Positions 2,238-62,050 are shown, numbered from the stretch's first letter. The stretch: DNA of 64,000 nucleotides from an uncultured Gemmatimonadaceae bacterium (GCA_963751275.1 CAVVTZ010000007.1:896001-960000), one strand, 5' to 3'. Notes: generated by a model from the letters alone, not told the origin. Translations and numbers: made by a program.

Positions 2238-2314
2238 ATCGTGTCAATCATGTTCATCCTGTCAAAGCAGTGCACCGGCAACTACTTTGACAGGATGAAC
2301 GTGATGGACATGAT
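2238..2314. repeat. Palindrome of the GxxExxY-associated family (34-bp arms)
   Basis: ATCGTGTCAATCATGTTCATCCTGTCAAAGCAGT, 9 nt spacer, ACTACTTTGACAGGATGAACGTGATGGACATGAT. Confidence 0.9.
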
Positions 2315-3040: not shown

Positions 3041-3088
3041 CGCGCGAGATGGTCTGACGGCTCACGCCGGCGTTCGGTGTTCGTCGTC

Positions 3089-3190
3089 ATCCTGTCAATC
3101 CTGAAAATCCTGTCATCCTGTCAAAGCAGTGCCGTTCCCACTAACGACACTGCTTTGACAGGATGACAGGATTTTCAGGATTGACAGGAT
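3089..3190. repeat. Perfect 43-bp-arm palindrome of the GxxExxY-associated family
   Basis: ATCCTGTCAATCCTGAAAATCCTGTCATCCTGTCAAAGCAGTG (3089-3131) and its exact reverse complement (3148-3190). Confidence 0.95.
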
Positions 3191-3254
3191 ACGGCTGGGT
3201 GTTCCATTTCTGGGCGGAAGGTTGGAGTATGCGTACGATCAACGGAGATGGAAC

Positions 3255-4040: not shown

Positions 4041-4145
4041 CGTCGTTTGCGAGTAACGCCGTAGAGAGTGAGACTGGGGACTTGATGCGCCATTCGTCGT
4101 TCAAGTCCCCAGTTCGACATTCTACGGCGTTACTCGCAAACGACG
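4041..4145. repeat. Long imperfect inverted repeat
   Basis: 25-bp perfect outer arms CGTCGTTTGCGAGTAACGCCGTAGA / TCTACGGCGTTACTCGCAAACGACG; 13-bp inner arms ACTGGGGACTTGA / TCAAGTCCCCAGT. Confidence 0.9.
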
Positions 4146-4436: not shown

Positions 4437-4510
<74 letters not shown>

Positions 4511-34391: not shown

Positions 34392-35381
34392 CTAGCAGTC
34401 CGCGCCGCCGAGTACGCGCGCGAACACGTCGCGGTCCACATTGCCGCCGGAGATCACGATCCCCGCGCGCTTGCCGCGCATTGCGGGCGCTTCAGAAAGG
34501 AGTGCCGCGAGCGGCGCCGCGCCCGCGCCCTCCGCCACGTTGTGCGTGTCGCTGAACAACGCGCGCATGGCGTCGGCCACCTGGGCGTCGCTCACCTCGA
34601 TCACGCGCGCGAGCTTGCCGCGCATCGCGGCGAGCGCGTCGGCTACCGGCGTGCGGCAGGCCATGCCGTCGGCGAGCACGGTGGTCACCGGCGCCGATTG
34701 CAGCGTGCCGCTCTCGATCGAGCGCGCGTAGGCGGGCGCCTGCGACGAGACGACGCCCACGATCTCGGTGCGCAGGCCGAGCGCATCGCGCGCCGCGATC
34801 ATCCCGCAGATGCCCGACCCAAGTCCGATCGGCACGTACACCACATCGAGCGGCGGCGCACCACGAAGGAATTCGAGCGCGTACGTGCCCACGCCCTGTA
34901 CCAGCCACGGGTGAAATGACGGGATACGGTACCATCCGCGTTCGCTGGCGAGCTTCTCCGCATGTTCGAGCGACGCCTGGAAATCATCGCCGCTCTCGAT
35001 GAGCTCCACCCCGAGCGCGCGCATCGCGGCGTCCTTCTCCTTGCTGTTGCCGCGCGGGACCACGACGGCCGCCTTGATCCCGAAGCGCGCCGCCGCGAGC
35101 CCGATCGATTGGCCGTGATTGCCGCGCGTGGCGGTGACCACGCCCGGCACGCTCACGCCGCTCGCGGCGAGCTCGTGGAAGAACACCAGCCCGCCGCGCA
35201 CCTTGAACGCGCCCACCGGCGTGTGGTTCTCGTGCTTCACCCACACCTCGGTGCCCACGCGCTGGTCGAGGAGCGGCCAGCGCTGCTGCGGCGTGGCCGC
35301 GAGCACCTCGTGCACGATGGCGCTCGCGCGCTCCAGCTCGGCGAGCGTGGGGAGGAGTCTCCCCGAGGCGACGCTGGTCAT
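34392..35381 (-). CDS. Threonine/serine dehydratase-like PLP enzyme
   Basis: KHENHTPVGAFKVRGG, ATRGNHGQS, PIGLGSG, SGGNVD. Confidence 0.93.
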   Translation of the reverse strand: MTSVASGRLLPTLAELERASAIVHEVLAATPQQRWPLLDQRVGTEVWVKHENHTPVGAFKVRGGLVFFHELAASGVSVPGVVTATRGNHGQSIGLAAARFGIKAAVVVPRGNSKEKDAAMRALGVELIESGDDFQASLEHAEKLASERGWYRIPSFHPWLVQGVGTYALEFLRGAPPLDVVYVPIGLGSGICGMIAARDALGLRTEIVGVVSSQAPAYARSIESGTLQSAPVTTVLADGMACRTPVADALAAMRGKLARVIEVSDAQVADAMRALFSDTHNVAEGAGAAPLAALLSEAPAMRGKRAGIVISGGNVDRDVFARVLGGADC

Positions 35382-35428
35382 GCTTTGGATGTTAGCGATG
35401 GGCCATGCGCCTTGACAGATTCGCGTCG

Positions 35429-35551
35429 AACCAAACTGCTTTTGACAGGATGACAGGATAGGAGCAGGATTGACAGGATGACAGCCTCGCGCGAGGCTGT
35501 CATCCTGTCAATCCCGCTCCTATCCTGTCATCCTGTCAAAGCAGTTTGGTT
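35429..35551. repeat. ~61-bp-arm loopless palindrome of the GxxExxY-associated family (MITE-like orientation)
   Basis: AACCAAACTGCTTTTGACAGGATGACAGG...CAGCCTCGC|GCGAGGCTG...CCTGTCATCCTGTCAAAGCAGTTTGGTT. Confidence 0.93.
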
Positions 35552-35616
35552 TGAACTGTCAGAACTCTAGGGGAACTGGGCTACCCGAAGGGTCCTTTCC
35601 ATGGGAGGAGGATGCC

Positions 35617-46068: not shown

Positions 46069-46542
46069 GTGACCGCGCCGAACGCGTCCGAACCGGCCAA
46101 TGCTCCGCGCACCTACCGCGTCGCGGCAGGGTGGCGCGTGTTCCTCACGCTCGCGGGCCTCGCCTTCTCAATCGGGGGCCTTTTTTGCTCCTGGTTCGCG
46201 TGGAACACTCATAGCGAGGAGGCCACGTTCTTCTGGCGGATCGTAGCCGCCGTGGGCTCTCTCGTTTGGGGCGTGGGAGTCGGCTTGTACGGCATCGTCG
46301 CCGCCTCGCGCAACCATCTCGTGCTCACCGCCGACCGGATCATCGTCTACCAATTGCTGTACGGCAGGCAGAGCCTGCGGCGGGACGAGATCGCAGGTCG
46401 TCGCCGGAAAATGCACTATACATTACTAGTTCCGACTCGGCCCGGTCTCGATGCGGTCAGGGTCGATTCGGGCTATGCGACCGACTCGGCGTTTGACGCA
46501 TGGCTGGCGTCGATCCCGACTCTCGACGCAGCGAATTCCTAG
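46069..46542 (+). CDS. Membrane hypothetical protein (2 TM plus PH-like domain)
   Basis: Two hydrophobic helices then a beta domain. Confidence 0.6.
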   Translation: MTAPNASEPANAPRTYRVAAGWRVFLTLAGLAFSIGGLFCSWFAWNTHSEEATFFWRIVAAVGSLVWGVGVGLYGIVAASRNHLVLTADRIIVYQLLYGRQSLRRDEIAGRRRKMHYTLLVPTRPGLDAVRVDSGYATDSAFDAWLASIPTLDAANS

Positions 46543-46561
46543 TCTCACACGGAGGTATCCA

Positions 46562-47108
46562 ATGCGCACCACACGAATGCTCGCCCTCGCGCTCCTCGCG
46601 TTCCCCATCATGGCGCCGGCCCGTCGCGCGCCCGCGCGGAGCGATGAACACGCGGAATGTTCTCAAGACCATTTCCGAGATGACCAAGAAGGATTCGGGG
46701 CTCACCAAGTTCTTCAAGGGCTCGGCGGGCTATGCGGTATTCCCCACGATCGGCAAAGGCGCGATCGGCATCGGCGGCGCGCACGGCGATGGCGAGCTCA
46801 TCGTCGGCGGAACGGCGCTCGGCGAGACCTCGATGACGCAGGTGACGATCGGCTTCCAGCTCGGCGGGCAGGCCTACTCCGAGATCATCTTCTTCGAGGA
46901 CGCGAAGACGCTCGCCAATTTCCAGAAGGGCGACTTCGAGTTCGCCGCGCAGGTGAGCGCGGTCGCGCTGAAGGCGGGCGCGTCGGCGAACGCCAAGTAC
47001 GCGAACGGCGTCGCCGTGTTCACCATGGCGAAGGGCGGTCTCATGTACGAAGCGAGCGTGGGCGGACAGAAATTCGGGTACAAGCCCTTCAAGCCCGCGG
47101 AAAAATGA
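46562..47108 (+). CDS. Ysc84/SYLF lipid-binding protein, frameshift near the 5' end
   Basis: GYAVFPTIGKG..GIGGAHG.G, GFQLGGQ.YSEIIFF, GGLMYEASVGGQKF. Confidence 0.85.
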
Positions 47109-47204
47109 TGCCCGGCGTCGTGGGATGACGCGCGCGGAGAACTGATGCCGTTGTAGTCCATCATGGCCATCATGTTCATCCTGTCCAGTTCTTGGCTTTA
47201 CAAC

Positions 47205-47681
47205 AACTGCTTTGACAGGATGAACATGATGGACATGGTGGGGGCTCCTCGAAATGACCTGCTCACCGAGAGAGTGATCGGGTTGGCAATGAAGGTGCAT
47301 CGAGCGCTTGGACCGGGCTTCCTCGAGGCGGTGTATCGAAGGGCACTCCTCATTGAATTGAGAAACGCGGGCATTCCGGCCGAAGCAGAATGCCGGATCT
47401 CGGTGATGTATGCAGGACTGCCCGTCGGTGAGTACGTCGCTGACATCACGGTGCAGTGCGCTGTAATCGTGGAATTGAAGGCTGTGGTTGCGCTGAGCAC
47501 GGCGCACGAGGTGCAGCTCGTACACTACCTAACCGCCACCGGCCTCGATGTGGGCCTCTTGCTCAACTTTGGCGCCGAGCGCCTGCAATTCAAACGAAAA
47601 CATCGATTGCCACGCGCCGCGACGATCTGAGCCTCACGCCGTTCCATCATGATCATCATGTTCATCATGTCAAGAGCAGTT
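47205..47681. mobile_element. GxxExxY cassette 1, bounded by inverted repeats
   Basis: AACTGCTTTGACAGGATGAACATGATGGACATGGTGG (47205-47241) and CCATCATGATCATCATGTTCATCATGTCAAGAGCAGTT (47644-47681); extra inverted copy at 47158-47187. Confidence 0.7.
47220..47630 (+). CDS. GxxExxY protein (PD-(D/E)XK nuclease-like)
   Basis: IGLAMKVHRALGPGFLEAVY, ADITV..VIVELKAV, QLVHYL.ATGL.VGLLLNFG. Confidence 0.93.
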   Translation: MNMMDMVGAPRNDLLTERVIGLAMKVHRALGPGFLEAVYRRALLIELRNAGIPAEAECRISVMYAGLPVGEYVADITVQCAVIVELKAVVALSTAHEVQLVHYLTATGLDVGLLLNFGAERLQFKRKHRLPRAATI

Positions 47682-47743
47682 GGTTTGAACTCAACTGCAC
47701 GACGATGCTCGTCATGGTGCGAGCGGCGCCCACCAGGAGATAG

Positions 47744-50426
47744 ATGGCCGCTCCAATCATGACCGGTGGTCCGGCGGCCACGCGCCCGCGTGCTGCTGCC
47801 CCATCGAGCCAAGCGGACAGCGACGCCCTCCGGCGCATCGCCTGGTGCGATGCCACGGCGGCGCTCACGGCGCTCGACGCCAAGCGCGAGGGGCTGGACG
47901 AGGAAGAGGTCGAGCGCCGCCGCGAGCAGTTCGGCCGCAATGAGGTCGCGCACGAGAAGGCGCCCGCGTGGTACACGCAGCTGCGCCACGCCTTCGCGAA
48001 TCCGTTCAACTTCCTGCTCAGCACCCTGGCCATCGCGTCCGGCGTCACCGGCGATCGCGAGGCCGTGGTGGTCATCGGGCTCATGGTGGCGCTGAGCGTC
48101 GGCCTTCGCTTCGCGCAGGAATTCCGCAGCAACAAGTCCGCCGAGGCGCTGCGGAAGCTCGTGAGCACCAGCACGGCGGTGGAGCGCAGTGACGACGAGT
48201 TCCATCCCGGCAGCACGCCCGCCGCGCGCCGCCGCGAGATCCCGATGTCCGACCTCGTGCCGGGGGACATCGTCTATCTCTCCGCGGGCGACATGGTGCC
48301 CGCCGACGTGCGCCTGATCGCGGCGAAGGACCTGTTCGTGAGCCAGAGTGCGCTCACCGGCGAGTCGCTTCCGGTGGAGAAGCTCGACCGCAGCGCGGCG
48401 CCGGAGAAGCCGGCGGCGCTCACCGAGATCCCGACCGTCTGCTTCATGGGCACGAGCGTGATCAGCGGCACCGCGACGGCCGTCGTCGCCACGACCGGCG
48501 CGCGCACCGCGTTCGGCGCGATGGCGAAGGGGCTCGTCGGGCCAGCGCGTCACGACGGCGTTCGACGTGGGCGTGAGCAAGGTGAGCTGGCTCTTCATCC
48601 GGTTCATCGTGGTGATGGTGCCGATCGTCTTCCTGCTCAACGGGCTGAACAAGCACGATTGGCTGGAGGCGTTCCTGTTCGGGCTCGCGGTGGCGGTGGG
48701 GCTCACCCCCGAGATGCTGCCGATGATCGTGACGACGAACCTCGCGAAGGGCGCCGTCACGATGGCGAAGCACAAGACGATCGTGAAGCGGCTCAACGCC
48801 ATCCAGAACTTCGGCGCGATGGATGTGCTGTGCACCGACAAGACGGGCACGCTCACGCAGGACAAGATCGTGCTCGAGCGGCACATCAACGTCGTGGGCG
48901 AGGAGGACGACGCGGTGCTCGCGCTCGCGTACCTGAACAGCTTCTACCAGACGGGGCTCAAGAATCTCCTGGACGTGGCGGTGCTGGAGCACGGCGAGAT
49001 CAAGGCCGAGCTGGCGATCGACAAGTCCTACTCGAAGGTGGATGAGATCCCCTTCGACTTCACGCGCCGCCGGATGTCGGTGGTGGTGGAGCACGAGCAT
49101 CAGACGCAGCGCCTCATCTGCAAGGGCGCGGTGGAGGAGATGCTCCGCATCTGCCGGTCGGCGCACGATGAGGACCGGGTGACGGAGCTGAATGACGAGC
49201 GGCGCGAGGACGCGAAGGAGCTCGTGGATGGAGATGAGCGAGGACGGGTTCCGCGTGGTGGCCGTGGCGTACCGCGACTTCGCGCCGCGCACGGGTCCGT
49301 ACACCGTGGCCGACGAGAGCGATCTCGTGCTGGCGGGGTTCATCGGCTTCCTCGATCCGCCCAAGGAGAGCGCCGCGCCGGCGATCAAGGCGCTCGCGCA
49401 GCACGGCGTGAGCGTGAAGATCCTCACCGGCGACAACGACCTCGTCTCGCGCAAGGTCTGCCAGGATGTGGGCCTCGAAGTCGGACACATCGTGCTCGGC
49501 AACGAGATCGACGGGACTCGACGACGAAGCAGCTCGGCGACGTGGCGTCGACAAAGGCACGGTGTTCGCGAAGCTGACGCCCGACGACAAGGTGCGCATC
49601 GTGCGCGCGCTGCGCGCGCGCGGCCACACCGTGGGCTTCATGGGCGATGGCATCAACGACGCCGGCGCGCTGCGCGAGTCCGACGTGGGCATCTCGGTGG
49701 ATTCCGCGGTGGACATCGCCAAGGAATCCGCCGACATCATCCTGCTCGAGAAGAGCCTGATGGTGCTGGAGGAGGGCGTGCTCGAGGGGCGGAAGACGTT
49801 CGGCAACACCATCAAGTACATCAAGATGACGGCGAGCTCGAACTTCGGGAACGTGTTCAGCGTGCTCATCGCGAGCGCGTTCCTGCCGTTCCTGCCGATG
49901 CTGCCGATCCAGCTCCTCACGGTGAATCTGCTCTACGATCTGTCGCAGACGTCCATCCCGTGGGACGACATGGACCCGGAGTATCTGACCGTGCCGCGGA
50001 AGTGGCGCGCCGACGACATCGGCCGGTTCATGATCTTCATCGGGCCGATCAGCTCGATCTTCGACGTGATCACCTTCGGCGTGATGTGGTACGTCTTCGC
50101 GCGCCAACGGCCCGGCCCACCAGTCGCTCTTCCAGTCGGGGTGGTTCATCGAGTCGCTGCTCACGCAGACGCTCATCGTGCACATGATCCGCACGGCGAA
50201 GGTGCCGTTCATCCAGAGCCGCGCGACGTGGCCGGTGCTCACGGTGACGGCGCTGACCATGGTGATGGGCATCGTGCTGCCCTTCACGCCGCTCGGGAAG
50301 AACCTCGGTCTCGAGGCGCTGCCGGCGAGCTATTTCCTCTGGCTCTTCGCGATCCTCTCGGGCTATTCCGCGCTCACGCAGGTGATGAAGGGCTGGTACA
50401 TCCGGCGGTTCGGGACGTGGCTGTGA
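47744..50426 (+). CDS. mgtA: Magnesium-translocating P-type ATPase with several frameshifts
   Basis: [58 protein letters not shown] spread over several frames. Confidence 0.9.
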
Positions 50427-50572
50427 GGGTGAACGGGCGTTGGTGCTGTTGAACGGTTCGAACACCGCATGCGGCGCTTGACTTCGCGACGGGTGAATGC
50501 TCAAACTGGATAGCGTCGTTCGCTGCGGCGCGCAGCGCAGGCCCACTCGTCCGAGCTCAGCTCCGGGGGATC

Positions 50573-52078
50573 ATGCGGCTCTTTTCCATTGCCGGTGCGG
50601 TCTTGACCGCCGCGTTCATCGCGGCCGGCACGGTATCGGCACCGGCCCAGGTGGCCACGAGAGCACCGGCGGTGCGGACGACGATGGCGCCCGCGCCGGC
50701 TGGATTGCAGGCCTTCACTACACCATCGGTGTGCGCGCAGCACTCCGACGTGCCGAACTGCACCGGTGCGCTCGAGCACGGGCTCGTGCTCTTCACCTGG
50801 ACGTGCGCGAACTGTGACCCGAACTGGCAGGCGCTGTTCGTCGTGAACGGGCAGCCGGGGGCGGTCTCGGATCTCACTCTCGCGCCTTCCAAGCACGCCG
50901 CGCTCAGTGTGCGCGCGAACCAGTTCAAGTCCGCCGATTGCGTGGCGGTGCGGATCTACAACCCGGCGCAGGCGGGGCAGCAGGCGACGAGCAATGCGGT
51001 GTGCCTGGCGCAGGTGATGGCGGCGCACGTCACGGTGGCGCCACCGGCGGCCAACGTGCGCGCGGCGCCCGCCGCCGGCGCCGCGGTCGCGACGGCGAAG
51101 GCGCCGGCGGCCGTGAGCGCCTCGTTCGTTCCCACGCCCAGCGGCATGGGCAGCACGCACGATCCGCACATGTGCGCGTCGCACGGCGGCACCGCGGGCA
51201 GTCTCGCCTGCTCGGCGGCGCTGCCAGCGGGCCAGCTCGCGCTCGTCTGGACCTGCCACGGATGCAAGGTGAGCGGCTACCGTCTGTATCGCGTGGACAA
51301 CGGCCAGCACACGCTGCTCCCGGCGAACGGCGCGTACGCCAGCGATGCCACGATCACGCTCGCGCTGCTCGAGCCGCCGGGCGACGGATTCAATGGGAAG
51401 TGCTGGGCGGTGGCGGCGTACAACGGCTCGAATGAATCGACGCTGAGTAACAGCTGGTGCGCCGGCGCCGGGAGCACGATCTCATCGATGACGCTGCAGC
51501 CGGGGCACGCGCTGCACTGGCAGCATTATCGTCCCTCGCGCACCGGAGTGATCGGCCACACGGACAAGCCGATCGATACGTACGACGCGACGATCTACGT
51601 GGGCTACGCGGATCACTATTGGAACAACGAGTTCGGCGATTCCTACGATGACTACATCCACCGGTCGGGCGTGTACTTCGATCTCTCGCCGCTGGCCGGG
51701 AAGACCGTGAGCAAAGCGGTGCTGCAATTCAACGCGTTCTCGTCATGGCACGACTACGACAATACGTCGGGGGATGCTCCGAACCTGACGGCGCAGAGCA
51801 CGGAGGCGTGCGTCGCCAGGATCTACAAGGCCACGGATCACTGGTGGGAGAACAACGACCTCGCCTCGAAGGTCTCGTACAGTGCGCCCGGGAATTACAA
51901 CGGGCCGACGTTCGGCATCGACGTGACCTCCGCGATCGCCGGCTGGCTCAAGAACCCATCGACGAACTTCGGATTCATCCTGGCGGGTTCCGACGAGAAT
52001 GACACGTGGCACGGCAACCGGAACAACGTGTGTCTCACGCAGCTGGAGTCGGTGGCGCTGGTGGTGAGCTACCACTGA
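50573..52078 (+). CDS. Secreted Cys-rich protein with C-terminal DNRLRE-like domain
   Basis: Signal peptide; two WTCxxC modules; FDLSPL...KAVL...DVTSAI.GWL..NFGFIL. Confidence 0.75.
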   Translation: MRLFSIAGAVLTAAFIAAGTVSAPAQVATRAPAVRTTMAPAPAGLQAFTTPSVCAQHSDVPNCTGALEHGLVLFTWTCANCDPNWQALFVVNGQPGAVSDLTLAPSKHAALSVRANQFKSADCVAVRIYNPAQAGQQATSNAVCLAQVMAAHVTVAPPAANVRAAPAAGAAVATAKAPAAVSASFVPTPSGMGSTHDPHMCASHGGTAGSLACSAALPAGQLALVWTCHGCKVSGYRLYRVDNGQHTLLPANGAYASDATITLALLEPPGDGFNGKCWAVAAYNGSNESTLSNSWCAGAGSTISSMTLQPGHALHWQHYRPSRTGVIGHTDKPIDTYDATIYVGYADHYWNNEFGDSYDDYIHRSGVYFDLSPLAGKTVSKAVLQFNAFSSWHDYDNTSGDAPNLTAQSTEACVARIYKATDHWWENNDLASKVSYSAPGNYNGPTFGIDVTSAIAGWLKNPSTNFGFILAGSDENDTWHGNRNNVCLTQLESVALVVSYH

Positions 52079-52117
52079 AACTGATAGACGTTGGACGTTA
52101 GACGTTAGAACAGACAG

Positions 52118-52150
52118 GACGCCCCGCTCGAGACACTCGAGCGGGGCGTC
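52118..52150. terminator. GC-rich hairpin
   Basis: GACGCCCCGCTCGAG ACA CTCGAGCGGGGCGTC. Confidence 0.6.
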
Positions 52151-52268
52151 GGCGTCACGATCCTGGCATCCGGCCCGGCCCCTCTTGCCAATTCGTTAGA
52201 CGATTCTCACATTACTGGCCCGACGCTCGATCCTGCCCGAGAAGTCCCTACACCAAGAAGAGGTAGCT

Positions 52269-53981
52269 ATGAGACTTCGACCACAAACACTCGCCGTCCT
52301 CGCTGCGGGGGCGCTCGCAACGGCGCTCGTTCCATGGTCTTCGCTCGGTGCACAGGCGAAGACGAGCAAGCCGAACATCATGTTCATCATGGGCGATGAC
52401 ATTGGCTGGATGCAGGTCGGGCTGTACCACGAAGGGTTGGCACTCGGCGAAACGCCGAACATTGACCGCATCGGCCGCGAGGGTGCGAAGTTCACGACCT
52501 ACTACGCGGAGCAGAGTTGCACCTCGGGCCGCAACGCCTTCTTCACGGGCATGCATCCGTTGCGCACCGGAATGATCCCGCCGCAGCTGCCGGGCAGCCC
52601 ATCGTACCTGCGTCCCGGTACGCCGGCGATCGCGAAGTTCCTGCACGACCTGGGCTACACCACCGGTGAGTTCGGCAAGAATCACTTGGGCGACCACACC
52701 GCCGCTTTGCCCACGGCCCACGGCTTCCAGGAATTCTTCGGCTATCTGTACCATTTGGACGCCATGGAGCAGGTCAGCTTCCCCGACATCAACAAGACGC
52801 CTCTCCTGCAGGGCTTCGCGCCACCGTGCAAGAACACGCCGATCAAGGGAATGGCCGATGTCCCCGGCGCAGTGGACCCGATGACCACGACCTGTCTGAC
52901 GCCGCCGCGGCCGATGATGCTCTGCACGTCGTCCGATGGCACCGAGGCCAATCAGACGTGCAAGGATGAGGGCCCGCTCACGTTGGAGCGCTCGCGCGGT
53001 GTGGACGAGGAGATCTCGGCTCACGTGATCGATTTCCTCGATCGCAACGATCCGAAGAAGACCGGCAAACCGTTCTTCGTCTGGTACAATCCCGCGCGCA
53101 TGCACATCACCACCATGCTGTCGCCGAAATACCTGGCGATGGTCGGCGAGCAGGGCGGCAAGGATTGGGGGATCAACGAGGCCGGCATGAAGCAGATGGA
53201 CGACAACATTGGCCTCGTCATCAAGAAGCTCGAGGAGATGGGCCAGCTCGATAACACGATCCTGGCATTCACAACCGACAATGGCGCCGAGACGCAGACG
53301 TTCCCCGACGGTGGGACCACGCCATTCAAGGGGCAGAAGCTGACCACGTGGGAAGGCGGCATGCGCGTGCCTATGGTGGTGCGGTGGCCCGGGCACATCA
53401 AGCCTGGCACGCTCTTGACCGAGATGTTCGCTTCGCTCGACTGGCTGCCGACTCTCGTCGACATCGCTGGCGGTCCCAAGGGCGACGCATTGAACAAGCA
53501 GATCCAGGCCGGCCAGTATCCGGGCATCGTGAAGACCATGCTCGACGGCGTGGACCAGACCGACTATCTGCTCGGGAAGTCGGATACTTCGATGCGCAAC
53601 ACGTTCTTCTACTACGCCGACGCGACACCCTCGGCGGTGCGCTTCAAGAATTGGAAGTTCTACTATACGATGGCCGGTTCGACGGGCGCCGCCGCGCTCG
53701 ATCCGCCGGTGACGTTCCACTGGACCCAGATCGATAACATTCGGCGCGACCCGTTCGAGCAGGCCGTTGGGGATGGGCAGAAGTCCATTCTCTCGTACGG
53801 CGGTGCGCTCGCGTCACCCACCACGGCGTATCTCTACGACTGGAACCTGCTTCCGGTGGGGCAGCTGCTGTGGCTGAAGGAGCTCGAATCGTATAAGAAG
53901 TTCCCGCCGCTGCAGGCGCCGGAGACGTACAATCTCGATGGCATTCTCAAGGCCATGCAGGACGTACACCAAAGCAACTAG
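52269..53981 (+). CDS. Arylsulfatase
   Basis: PNIMFIMGDD, SCTSGR, GKNHLGD, TDNG, WEGGMRVP. Confidence 0.93.
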   Translation: MRLRPQTLAVLAAGALATALVPWSSLGAQAKTSKPNIMFIMGDDIGWMQVGLYHEGLALGETPNIDRIGREGAKFTTYYAEQSCTSGRNAFFTGMHPLRTGMIPPQLPGSPSYLRPGTPAIAKFLHDLGYTTGEFGKNHLGDHTAALPTAHGFQEFFGYLYHLDAMEQVSFPDINKTPLLQGFAPPCKNTPIKGMADVPGAVDPMTTTCLTPPRPMMLCTSSDGTEANQTCKDEGPLTLERSRGVDEEISAHVIDFLDRNDPKKTGKPFFVWYNPARMHITTMLSPKYLAMVGEQGGKDWGINEAGMKQMDDNIGLVIKKLEEMGQLDNTILAFTTDNGAETQTFPDGGTTPFKGQKLTTWEGGMRVPMVVRWPGHIKPGTLLTEMFASLDWLPTLVDIAGGPKGDALNKQIQAGQYPGIVKTMLDGVDQTDYLLGKSDTSMRNTFFYYADATPSAVRFKNWKFYYTMAGSTGAAALDPPVTFHWTQIDNIRRDPFEQAVGDGQKSILSYGGALASPTTAYLYDWNLLPVGQLLWLKELESYKKFPPLQAPETYNLDGILKAMQDVHQSN

Positions 53982-54189
53982 CTGGCCGCGTGCGGATCGA
54001 GTATCACGGCGGGCGGTCCCTGCGGGGGCCGCCCGTTTCGCCTCATGCAGAGATCGTGGTGCGCACGGAGACGTGCGCACTCTCCCCTCTTGCGCCGAGC
54101 GGCGAACTTTTCCACTCGTGGTCGTATTCGATCAGCAGGTTGTTGCCCCCCGCAGGATCAGCTACCGCACCTACAACGAGGACAGCGCG

Positions 54190-55876
54190 ATGATAAGCTT
54201 TGGATGGCGAAGGAGCGGCGTCCGCTACGCCGCCGCGACGGCGGCTCTCATGCTTGCCGTGCCGCTGGTGATCCAGGCGCAGGCGTCGGCCAAGAAACCG
54301 AATATCGTCATGCTGATGACCGACGATACCGGTTGGGGCGACTGGGGCTACATTCGGGCGGCGGCGCCGCGCTCGGCCACCCCACGCCGAACATCGACCG
54401 CGTGGCGAAGGAAGGCACCTACTTCACGAACTGGTATGGCCAGGCGAGCTGCACCGCGGGGCGCGCGTCGTTCATCACGGGCCGCATCCCCATTCGCTCG
54501 GCGCTCTCGATCGTGGTGGCGCCGGGCGATGAGAACGGGTTGCACAAGGAGACGCCCACCATCGCCGAGTTCTTCAAGAAGAACGGCTATCAGACCTACT
54601 TCTCGGGGAAGTGGCACCTGGGTGACAAGCCGGAATTCTATCCCATCGAGCACGGCTTCGATGAGATGCGGAACTTCGCGGCGTATTACCCGGGCGTGTA
54701 CACGTACAGCGATACGTCGCCGCGGATGCACCCGTGGTTCCCGCGGTACAATCCGGAATTCTGGAAGATGTACCAGGACGCGGTGAACCTGCACGAATGG
54801 TCGGGCGTGGCCGGCAAGCCCGCGGTGCAAGGGCGAACTGATCACGTGGGATGCGCTCGGCGGAGTTCGATGTGCGCCAGACGGCCTCGGCCGTCGCGTA
54901 CATCAAGGAGCACGCCAAGGACGCGAAGCCGTTCTTCATGGACGTCAACTTCATGAAGATGCACAACCCGAACAACCCGGCCAAGGAATTCGCCGGCAAG
55001 ACGCACCTCGGCAATTACTCGGACGCGATGCTCGAGCTCGATTCCAACATTGGCAAGATCATGGATGCGATCCGCGCCGAGGCGCCGAACACGATCGTGA
55101 TCATCACGGCCGACAACGGGGCGTGGCAGGATGCCTATCCGGACGCCGGCACCGTGCCCTTCCGCGGCGAGAAGGGGACCGCCTTCGAAGGCGGCTGGCG
55201 CGTGCCGGGCATCATGTGGTCGCCCGGGCGGATCCCGGCCGGCCAGCACCTGGATGAGATGATGTCGCACATGGATGTGTGGCCGACGACGGCCGCGATG
55301 GTGGGGCTCAAGCCGCCGCCAACGGGGGAGTGGACCGACAACGCCGGCAAGCCCATCTACTTCGATGGCATCGACAACAGCGCCTACGTCACCGGCAAGG
55401 CCATGCACTCGGCGCGCGATGGGTGGATCTACATCGACGGCGAGAATTTCCTGGGCATGCGCGCCGACATCGGCGGCGATCCCAACGAGCCGTGGCTGCG
55501 CATCGCCTGGAAGTATCTGTATACCGCGAAGGACACGTGGCTCGGCCCCGACCAGAACCTCGGTTCCATTGGCGCGACGTACAACCTGACCATGGATCCC
55601 TACGAGAAGTATTCCATGACGTTCAATGGCGCGGTCGCCTCGCGCATGCCGGGCGAATCGCCGGGCAAGTACGCGGGTGAGGACAACGGGTGGGTGCTCG
55701 CGCTCCTGTATCCCGTGCTGGTGAATTTCGACTTGTCCATCATGAAGTATCCGAACATCCAGCGCGTGCCGGGCGGCGCCTCGAACGATCTCGTGCCGAA
55801 CCTGAAGATGCCATCGAATCCGGTGCCATTGCTCGATCCGAAGAAGCCGGTGAAGGCCATTCCAGCGATCGATTGA
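54190..55876 (+). CDS. Arylsulfatase, frameshifts near 54355 and 54840
   Basis: PNIVMLMTDD, SCTAGR, GKWHLGD, ADNG, EGGWRVP across three frames. Confidence 0.9.
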
Positions 55877-56019
55877 ACGAAGTCGAGGTGATGTGAAGCG
55901 GGCGGTCCGAGAGGGCCGCCCGTTTCGCGTTCGGGATGGGTTCATCGCGCGGGTTTTCGATGTCGATGCCTACGTGGCATTCTGGCATCTTCCCGGCGGA
56001 GAGATCCATCACGGCAACT

Positions 56020-56538
56020 GAACTGCTTTGACAGGATTATCAGGATGGACGGGATTGACGGGATGACTGCACCCCGAGCGCCGCTAGACGATCCGGTGAC
56101 GGAGCGCGTGATCGGGCTCGCAATGAAAGTCCATCGAGTGCTGGGACCCGGATTCCTGGAGTCCGTTTACCGAAGAGCGCTCTTGGTTGAACTGCGAACG
56201 GCCGGCGTCGCGGCCGAAGAGGGCAGGCGGATCAGCGTCGCATACAGCGGCGTCTCAGTGGGCGAGTTCATCGCCGACATCATCGTCGGCGAAAGAGTGG
56301 TCGTTGAGTTGAAAGCCGTCGAAGCGCTCCACAGTGCACACGAATTTCAGATAGTGAACTATCTGACCGCGACGGGCATCGACGTGGGCCTCTTATTCAA
56401 CTTCGGCAGTGCGCAGTTGCAGTTCAAACGAAAATATCGCCGTGGCCGAGCGAACCAAGGCGCCCGGGAACGGCGAGAACGACTCGGACCATCATCCTGA
56501 CAATCCCGTTCATCCCGTGAATCCTGTCAAAGCAGTTC
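56020..56538. mobile_element. GxxExxY cassette 2, bounded by 47-bp inverted repeats
   Basis: GAACTGCTTTGACAGGATTATCAGGATGGACGGGATTGACGGGATGA (56020-56066) / TCATCCTGACAATCCCGTTCATCCCGTGAATCCTGTCAAAGCAGTTC (56492-56538). Confidence 0.75.
56063..56500 (+). CDS. GxxExxY protein (PD-(D/E)XK nuclease-like)
   Basis: VHRVLGPGFLESVY, ADIIV..VVVELKAV, QIVNYL.ATGIDVGLLFNFG; alternative start 56045. Confidence 0.93.
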   Translation: MTAPRAPLDDPVTERVIGLAMKVHRVLGPGFLESVYRRALLVELRTAGVAAEEGRRISVAYSGVSVGEFIADIIVGERVVVELKAVEALHSAHEFQIVNYLTATGIDVGLLFNFGSAQLQFKRKYRRGRANQGARERRERLGPSS

Positions 56539-56617
56539 GTTCAGGATGCCAGGATGACCAGGATGCTGAGGCTGCGCACGAGTTCGTGAACGAGCATGTG
56601 TGCCTGCACTCGCAAGT

Positions 56618-61737: not shown

Positions 61738-62050
61738 GCGTGAGGCGCACCCCCCAACGCCGTGAGACGAAACCCGAACGCCGTGAGGCGCGAGGCGCAC
61801 CCCGAATCCCGTGAGGCGTGAGGCGCACCCCGAATCCCGTGAGGCGTGAGGCGTGCGACGAAAGGACCGTACGGCGTGAGGCGCGACCCGAACTCCGTGA
61901 GGCGCGAGCGCACTCACGGCGTTCGGGGTTACGCCTCACGCCGTATCATCAGTTCGCTGCACGCCTCACGCCTCACGGTGTTTCGGGGTGCGCCTCACGC
62001 CGTGCAGTCAGTTCGCCGCACGCCTCACGCCTCACGGAGTTCGGGTTACG
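61738..62050. repeat. Composite GTGAGGC heptamer array, direct then inverted (REP/BIME-like)
   Basis: Many (C)GTGAGGCG copies 61738-61905, including a 28-bp tandem unit, then CGCCTCAC(G) copies 61912-62040. Confidence 0.88.

Follow-up and report, generated by a model that had tools for sequence, protein, structure and literature searches.

GxxExxY nuclease genes carried inside hairpins of a dispersed intergenic palindrome family in an uncultured Gemmatimonadaceae bacterium

Palindromes scattered between genes have been tied to a cognate enzyme in the REPIN-RAYT systems. According to the part of the description on which we draw here (PMC3116915), REPINs are dispersed extragenic palindromes of about 100 nt that form long hairpins and higher-order arrays, and each genome has one or a few RAYT genes flanked by the same repeat. 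In that same part of the source, the repeats are lineage-specific, persist for long at orthologous sites, show compensated changes in their arms, and leave no target duplication. A small gene enclosed by repeats is also found in the Coxiella burnetii 23S rRNA intervening sequence (IVS), where the section of the source used here (PMC4990558) reports a 28-bp stem of terminal repeats, tandem GACAGAT before the start of the S23p open reading frame (ORF), and cuts by RNase III in the stem. Here, we analyze a window of 64,000 nucleotides (the whole stretch of DNA, G000:C7:896001-960000, with positions counted from its first letter) of an uncultured Gemmatimonadaceae bacterium (GCA_963751275.1), in which two genes of the GxxExxY family each lie in the loop of a long inverted repeat. 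We call them cassette 1 (in the 47 kb region of the window) and cassette 2 (in the 56 kb region). The genome, G000, is a 3.1-Mb draft of 14 contigs with 68% G+C and is 83% complete. A 2012 survey of the PD-(D/E)XK superfamily lists the family, under the name PDDEXK_3, as 'Unknown' (PMC3424549). Our literature searches found no paper linking the GxxExxY/PDDEXK_3 family to repeats. The best-supported account of the results below is a partnership between a clade of these proteins and a repeat word, working like REPIN-RAYT.

The hairpins of this genome resemble REPINs in the traits listed above, including the small number of cognate genes. On persistence and vertical inheritance the signs are divided: all five hairpin sites compared are occupied in at least three of four congeneric genomes and cassette 1 is conserved in two congeners, whereas the closest proteins outside the genus belong to other phyla and come with the same unit word. 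They are not a member of the REPIN-RAYT systems, because the defining enzyme is absent: the protein is a PD-(D/E)XK nuclease of about 130 amino acids (aa) and not a Y1 HUH transposase, for which the profile PF01797 has no match in the 83% complete G000. In addition, the gene is placed inside the hairpin loop and not merely beside the repeats, and the arms consist of tandem units of 8-10 bp. REPIN-RAYT is described as vertically inherited, whereas here related proteins from several phyla are accompanied by one and the same unit word, an indication of horizontal movement. The likeness to the Coxiella IVS, as far as the source section describes it, lies in the small ORF in the loop of a terminal-inverted-repeat stem, the ribosome-binding region within that stem, the size of about 0.45-0.5 kb, and the 7-nt units before the start, which are close to the GACAGGAT unit found here. 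In contrast to the IVS, the cassettes stand between protein-coding genes and not in 23S rRNA helices, their ORF encodes a GxxExxY protein and not the S23p four-helix bundle (six genes of the latter type lie elsewhere in G000), and the mismatches of their stems lack an RNA-wobble signature. A last point of comparison is I-Ssp6803I, an intron-encoded homing endonuclease of the PD-(D/E)XK fold. The cassettes likewise have a small PD-(D/E)XK gene inside what may be its own recognition sequence, and the gene-less copies would be the candidate empty sites; however, there is no intron or intein here and about 60 of the candidate sites are empty.

Each cassette measures about 0.45-0.5 kb, has GxxExxY as its sole ORF, and is in sense with the gene upstream. 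The arms are 87% complementary, over 30 nt in cassette 1 (47212-47241 with 47644-47673) and over their full length in cassette 2 (Table 1). They are all built in the same way: a conserved outer word, AACTGCTTTGACAGGAT, is followed by three to five tandem 9-bp units with CAGGAT or a near variant, which gives direct-repeat spacings of 9 and 18. With up to two mismatches, the outer word occurs 8 times in the window and in none of 100 shuffles, and its 17 nt are identical in three of the four main cassette arms. Arm identity is higher within cassettes (0.89 and 0.87) than between them (0.76-0.81), and the split between an ATCATG type and an ATCCCG type holds. The left arms contain AGGA-like words and the start codons, ATG 47220 for gene 1 and ATG 56045 or 56063 for gene 2. 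The stop codon of gene 2 (56498-56500) falls within the right arm, and that of gene 1 (47628-47630) lies 14 nt before it. Cassette 1 is found between the genes of a 202-aa protein and a P-type ATPase, and cassette 2 between a sulfatase gene and a serine-hydrolase-like gene. A preliminary description of this DNA had proposed that both genes are tightly bracketed by inverted repeats with an outer core and inner units of about 9 bp, that the arms match better within than between cassettes, that the starts and one stop lie inside arms, and that the cassettes sit between unrelated genes. All of this was borne out.

The preliminary description does not mention an extra arm ahead of cassette 1. This arm is complementary to the cassette's left arm, so that the left side of cassette 1 is a complete hairpin by itself. 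Folded as DNA, it has a z-score of -8.1, and the three gene-less copies of the window have z-scores of -19.2, -18.6, and -7.7. In cassette 2, the units beyond the right arm appear to be left over from an adjoining arm.

Table 1. Positions of the cassettes, of the gene-less hairpins of the window, and of the bracketed four-helix-bundle genes elsewhere in the genome
Feature	Position	Strand	Remarks
Extra right-type arm	47158..47185	.	pairs with cassette 1 left arm, 28 nt, 93% complementary
Cassette 1 left arm	47205..47241	+	AACTGCTTTGACAGGAT then 9-bp ATCATG-type units; contains start codon
GxxExxY gene 1	47220..47630	+	136 aa from ATG 47220; open frame from 47163
Cassette 1 right arm	47644..47681	-	outer end is the limit of homology with the congener's orthologous cassette
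Cassette 2 left arm	56020..56066	+	outer word and four 9-bp units of CAGGAT/CGGGAT type; contains ATG 56045 and ATG 56063
GxxExxY gene 2	56045..56500	+	151 aa; stop codon within right arm
Cassette 2 right arm	56492..56538	-	47 nt, 87% complementary to left arm
Left-type CAGGATG units without outer word	56545..56565	+	just past cassette 2 right arm; direct-repeat copy 56547-56565
Gene-less back-to-back hairpin	2238..2314	.	orthologous site occupied in 4/4 congeneric genomes compared
Gene-less back-to-back hairpin	3085..3193	.	near-perfect stem of about 50 bp
Gene-less closed hairpin	35429..35552	.	left arm, 4-nt loop, right arm (cassette layout minus gene); DNA z = -19.2
Bracketed four-helix-bundle gene	G000:C9:82638-82958		outside window
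Bracketed four-helix-bundle gene	G000:C9:147359-147679		outside window
Bracketed four-helix-bundle gene	G000:C10:15624-15872		outside window
Bracketed four-helix-bundle gene	G000:C9:571057-571296		outside window
Bracketed four-helix-bundle gene	G000:C9:285473-285673		outside window

To measure the packaging of a gene, we took the highest-scoring inverted repeat that links its two 260-nt flanks, with a cut-off of at least 34. In genomes of the same phylum, 34 of the 55 GxxExxY loci are bracketed (32 of 53 without G012 and G079, both flagged as unpublished). The same holds for 48 of the 75 loci collected across phyla, in named genomes of many phyla. For comparison, only 15 of 596 random called genes of G000 pass the cut-off, and two of these are four-helix-bundle genes. 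One of the patterns used for the cross-phylum search, MNMMDMVG, is itself encoded by the arm; most loci matched from residue 12-15 on, and were thus found via other patterns. The arms of the other loci have the same architecture and different unit words, namely CACGAAG, CACGGAG, CACAGAG, CGCAGAG, CGCAGAT, and CGCGGAT. The enrichment of repeats near GxxExxY genes, which the preliminary description had named as a point on which its reading could fail, is therefore found well beyond this genome.

The gene and the repeats also tend to occur in the same genomes. We defined arm-rich genomes as those with at least 5 matches to a pattern of three CRCRRAG units, and the presence of GxxExxY by an E-value of at most 1e-20. 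There are 19 arm-rich genomes among 121 genomes of the phylum, and the gene is present in 17 of them (16 of 18 without the two unpublished genomes), frameshifted in G081, and not found in G111. It is present in 24 of the remaining 102 genomes, and many of these 24, like G000, use other unit words. The association is strong (Fisher odds ratio 27.6, p = 7e-8), although the p-value overstates the evidence because the genomes are kin. All five genomes examined have a unit type that occurs in their cassette arms and is amplified across the genome, with 66 to 474 matches. The amplified units are CACAGAG (192) and CACGGAG (29) in G037, CACGGAG in G077 and in G123 (66 each), CACAGAG in G098 (152), and CGCGGRG (474) along with CACGGAG (216) in G127. 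G037 and G127 thus each have a further abundant unit type; in two of the five genomes, the second type is comparable in abundance to the cassette type or exceeds it. Within the genus of G000, the family core word is present in four of six genomes, with 76 matches in G000, 39 in G005, 37 in G002, and 21 in G004. It has no match in the two other assemblies of the genus, which are highly fragmented, nor in 25 genomes of other genera, so that the family was found in this genus alone.

The preliminary description had suggested comparing the phylogenies of repeat and protein, and the outcome is positive. In a tree of 54 proteins of the phylum, the 12 arms of GAT type all fall in one main clade and the 9 of GAG type all fall in the other. 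The arm types require 7 changes on this tree, for a mean of 14.2 when they are shuffled, and none of 300 shuffles was as low. In the cross-phylum tree of 75 proteins, five classes of words require 6 changes (the minimum being 4), where shuffling gives 20.2 on average and never as few in 300 shuffles. Outside the genus, the closest proteins are 55-69% identical to those of the window and belong to hosts named Verrucomicrobiota, Bacteroidota, Chloroflexota, Planctomycetota, and others. The local G+C of these loci ranges from 0.41 to 0.71, yet the unit word is the same. CAGGAT upstream together with ATCCTG downstream is found in 26 of the 37 loci at 55% identity or more to the window protein, and in 8 of the 39 below; in the latter range, the word becomes CACGGA, CACAGA, CGCAGA, or CACGAA. 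The right arm is non-coding, and the two window genes are separated by 1.75 synonymous substitutions per site (dS), so that a neutral word would not survive. Judging from these comparisons, the unit word is under constraint, and the constraint tracks the protein.

The protein itself belongs to the family by its profile matches. The ORFs at 47163..47630 and 56045..56500 match the GxxExxY profile TIGR04256 (E = 3.4e-39 and 5.2e-39; 133.8 and 133.2 bits for a cut-off of 35) and PF13366, i.e., PDDEXK_3 (E = 6.1e-38 and 1.7e-37; 130.2 and 128.8 bits for a cut-off of 22). In an alignment of 29 sequences, residues G36, E39, Y42, D78, E88, and K90 never vary, and Q102 and Y106 hardly do. They make up the pattern E...D...ExK...QxxxY, which we take to be that of RecB/Cas4-type PD-(D/E)XK nucleases. 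The structure model has a pLDDT of 88.1 and adopts a restriction-endonuclease-like fold. Its nearest solved folds in Foldseek are LHK-exo, lambda exonuclease, RecE, and Cas4 SSO0001 (E-values of 4e-4 to 2e-3), along with the junction resolvase Hjc (2wiw, TM 0.48, 25% identity). A sequence search of the solved structures gave no relevant relative, PADLOC gave just weak Cas4 matches to protein 2 (E-values of 0.009-0.05), and PHROGs gave no match. Hence, profiles, catalytic residues, and predicted fold support the assignment to the PD-(D/E)XK superfamily put forward in the preliminary description. As modelled, the fold says active nuclease, without naming a substrate. The gene is under purifying selection with its catalytic residues kept: the ratio of nonsynonymous to synonymous substitution rates (dN/dS) is 0.12-0.21 at dS of 1.4-1.75, and 0.16 for the pair of the window.

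A census of the core in relation to the GxxExxY loci, also suggested in the preliminary description, revealed a large family of hairpins. The 15-mer core, searched in the whole genome with up to two mismatches, has 87 matches in 48 loci. These are 26 closed hairpins (left arm, short loop, right arm), 19 back-to-back hairpins (right arm, short loop, left arm), 1 tandem array, and the 2 cassettes. A de novo search for palindromes added 14 loci with diverged cores, so that the family has at least 62 loci. Only two of the 62 have gene cargo, GxxExxY in both cases, and among the 48 core loci the loops of all but the cassettes have at most a few dozen bases. None of the 48 core loci is inside a called gene, and they often fill the whole spacer. 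The closed gene-less hairpins retain the inner GGATGACTGC, which in cassette 2 holds the start codon. Their arms score mostly 100-126 out of 126 against the partner arm, whereas the two cassettes score 51 and 65. These closed copies differ much among themselves and are old, and such near-perfect pairing in old, mutually diverged copies points to the two arms being corrected or copied jointly. Another GxxExxY gene, the third in G000 (C12:52281-52607), directly follows a closed hairpin of a sister family, which has CGCGGAT units and arms that begin with AACGGCTTCCACGCGGAT. A tandem array (G000:C2:51721-52260) has four of the family's closed hairpins, one every 140-147 bp or so. The hairpins match no Rfam family and give just sub-threshold, generic matches resembling miRNA precursors.

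Comparison with the congeneric genomes G005, G002, and G004 informs on the history of these loci. Cassette 1 has orthologs in G005 and G002 at 71-74% DNA identity, with the same hairpin upstream and different immediate neighbours. The right arm's outer end is the precise limit of homology among the orthologs. In the G002 ortholog (G002:C3:131125-131443), GxxExxY is split over two frames and the arms are kept. G004 lacks a 2.2-kb segment made of cassette 1 and two ordinary genes; we considered this genome as a clean empty site for cassette 1 and rejected it, as the absence belongs to the 2.2-kb indel. Cassette 2 has no ortholog in the congeners; its region is rearranged in all of them, and the neighbouring hydrolase gene is unmatched. 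A threonine-dehydratase gene with its hairpin (34394-35552) has different neighbours in G000 than in G005 and G002, where it lies between the gene of the 202-aa protein and the cassette. Hence, rearrangement breakpoints fall at hairpins. We also looked for joints at positions 46400-48400 of the window and found none in the short, low-depth contigs from four DNA runs.

Gene-less sites show the same mixture of persistence and change. One of them has the hairpin in three genomes and is cleanly empty in G004, with at most 3 nt (TCA) in common at the junction. Local identity at this site is about 95% between G002 and G004 and 83-89% for the others. G004 is thus nested among genomes that carry the hairpin, and its empty site is probably a precise loss, as far as the local sequences tell. 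Two other sites have the same hairpin family in all four genomes. Another has a closed copy in G000 and a back-to-back one in the other three. The last (L082:2943-3071, G000:C7:529943-530070) has the family's own hairpin in G000, one of another family in G005 and G004, and one of a third family in G002. Hairpins thus stay in their intergenic slots for long, are at times lost, replaced, or rearranged, and do not hop often. Since they are mostly old residents, copying must be rare. The search for empty sites and target duplications proposed in the preliminary description therefore gave a mixed result, i.e., one clean empty site, for a gene-less copy, and no target duplication.

How should these observations be put together? 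If the partnership works as we propose, the PD-(D/E)XK nuclease would recognise the unit word both in the arms around its gene and in copies without a gene. It would cut the arms, probably as hairpin or cruciform DNA, and cutting would drive copying, replacement, and the occasional precise loss in intergenic slots. The nuclease would then have the role that RAYT has for REPINs, with a different chemistry, as the enzymes are unrelated. When a cassette is transcribed, the arms would pair and enclose the ribosome-binding region and the start codon. The resulting stem of 30-50 bp should be a substrate of RNase III, as in the ORF-bearing 23S rRNA intervening sequences. We rate the chance that the nuclease, by acting on the arms, maintains or spreads the family as a little short of even.

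Several observations weigh against this proposal. All five gene-less sites compared are occupied in at least three of the four congeneric genomes, and cassette 1 itself appears to be vertically inherited within its neighbourhood and not to hop. No consistent flanking direct repeat was found at 46 members of the family, which sets the hairpins apart from miniature inverted-repeat transposable elements and from insertion sequences with terminal inverted repeats; all that is seen is the TCA, at most 3 nt long, at the single empty site. A PD-(D/E)XK enzyme cannot by itself join DNA strands. A gene and arms that merely travel together would likewise yield the observed co-phylogeny. The two arm-rich genomes without an intact GxxExxY gene have to be accounted for, as does G004 (76% complete), which has no cassette 1 and has two unbracketed GxxExxY genes, yet carries 21 core matches. 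Moreover, the packaging is shared by another type of gene. Five of the six four-helix-bundle genes of G000 (TIGR02436, S23p/Avd-like) are bracketed by inverted arrays with other units (Table 1), and so are all five of those in G081 and G111, with 6-7-nt units. These genes do not encode nucleases and are packaged alike, so the packaging does not need a nuclease. Finally, several abundant palindrome clusters of G000 have no gene-bearing copy. Of the minimal selfish element analogous to RAYT/REP advanced in the preliminary description, what stands is the association of gene and repeat, their co-occurrence and co-phylogeny, and the absence of a Y1 enzyme; the picture of an element that spreads fits less well with the lack of target duplication, the little hopping, the persistence of sites, and the like packaging of non-nuclease genes.

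One might instead regard the gene as a passenger. The hairpins would be made, kept, or spread by the host or by another factor, and GxxExxY would cut empty hairpins, be copied into their loop during repair, and thereby spread itself alone. Several of the findings above fit: the closed gene-less hairpins are equal to a cassette minus the gene, with the inner word retained; the gene occupies just two of the 62 loci; slots persist while the hairpin type changes at the same slot with or without a gene; the arms of gene-less copies are the better paired ones; and an enzyme and its target site should likewise show matching phylogenies, as word and protein do. However, a homing gene should fill many sites, yet about 60 suitable ones are empty, and cassette 1 keeps its neighbourhood in two congeners, with no move to new sites. 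The absence of cassette 1 in G004 comes with two ordinary genes and leaves no clean empty hairpin, and among the loci compared in congeners we saw no site that is polymorphic for the presence of the gene in the same hairpin. Few arm-rich genomes (2 of 19) lack the gene, which is unexpected if the hairpins are independent features of the host. We therefore consider homing of the gene alone unlikely.

The arms might also act only in the transcript, as a stem cut by RNase III that releases or silences the gene and insulates its neighbours. The gene-less copies would then be elements of RNA processing or stability, and the nuclease would have an unrelated job, e.g., in defence or repair. This design is the same as that of the Coxiella 23S IVS, in the section of the source cited above (PMC4990558). 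The left arms do hold the start codon and the AGGA-like words, and cassette 2 folds as RNA with its arms paired (z = -7.5, equalled by none of 100 shuffles). Both cassettes are in sense with the upstream gene, and all 48 core loci are intergenic, often filling the spacer. The mismatches of the stems tell otherwise. In the 34 bracketed cassettes, 46 mismatches are compatible with G:U pairing in the sense strand, 65 in the antisense strand, and 96 are transversions. There is no excess of G:U in the sense strand, and the difference between strands goes in the wrong direction (binomial p = 0.087). Selection for pairing in the sense transcript alone should have left a different pattern. Furthermore, a stem needs mere complementarity, yet a specific word is kept across phyla and tracks the protein clade. 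Among the 33 loci with close called genes on both sides, 19 are between co-directional genes and 6 between convergent ones, but 8 are between divergent genes; these gene calls are crude, being based on third-position G+C, and the strand is wrong for the gene upstream of the hairpin at 2238-2314. The co-occurrence of arms and gene across genomes would also be left unexplained. An action restricted to RNA seems to us slightly less likely still than homing. It is extremely improbable that the inverted repeats are accidental or mis-assembled: the assembly is a draft of 14 contigs in which two or more genes close to the cassettes run over several frames, with possible indel errors, but none of 100 shuffles matches the word, orthologous copies exist in congeners, and the recurrence of the design in independent assemblies from many phyla refutes this explanation.

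Some further features of the window deserve mention. The P-type ATPase gene that follows cassette 1 is split over three overlapping frames (47744-50452) and the sulfatase gene over two (54045-55876); these are either frameshifted pseudogenes or the product of indel errors in the assembly. The ATCATG-type arms resemble a sigma-70 promoter on the minus strand, at 10 and 9 of 12 positions (47646-47673 and 47160-47187, respectively), with TTGACA in the outer word, a spacer of 16 nt, and CATGAT, and the match reads from the outer word into the units. We dropped the idea that the arms are promoters in general, as cassette 2 lacks the site and TTTAGACAGGAT frequently stands in its place among relatives from other phyla. 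The only Rfam match in the window is an ordinary tRNA gene (4437-4510; RF00005, 72 bits).

The family described here is part of a larger load of palindromes. G000 has no fewer than 235 long palindromes, defined as sites where at least 22 nt pair perfectly within 260 nt. They form 26 clusters, and there is about one palindrome per 13 kb. Many clusters have arms of tandem 7-9-nt units, as exemplified in the window at 4041-4145 and 61792-62037. All nine small cargo genes of the genome, i.e., the three GxxExxY and the six four-helix-bundle genes, are found beside arms of dispersed clusters. One may then extend the partnership to a general form, in which GxxExxY and the four-helix-bundle IVS proteins would serve in trans a second class of REPIN-like replicators, one that is HUH-independent. 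Every clade of these proteins would recognise a unit word of its own and maintain intergenic palindromes, and the gene and its arms would move between phyla as one unit. We regard this general form as rather doubtful.

GxxExxY/PDDEXK_3 is a large family found in many phyla, and the link between protein clade and repeat word makes its function directly testable. Long intergenic palindromes are common and mostly unexplained outside REP/RAYT. The partnership of a nuclease clade with a repeat word would be a second, mechanistically different example of long-lived intragenomic replicators, and it ties in the old puzzle of the rRNA intervening sequences and their ORFs. If the general, HUH-independent form is true, it would give a function to a very large orphan family, make sense of many anonymous intergenic palindromes, and tell where the ORF-bearing 23S rRNA intervening sequences came from.

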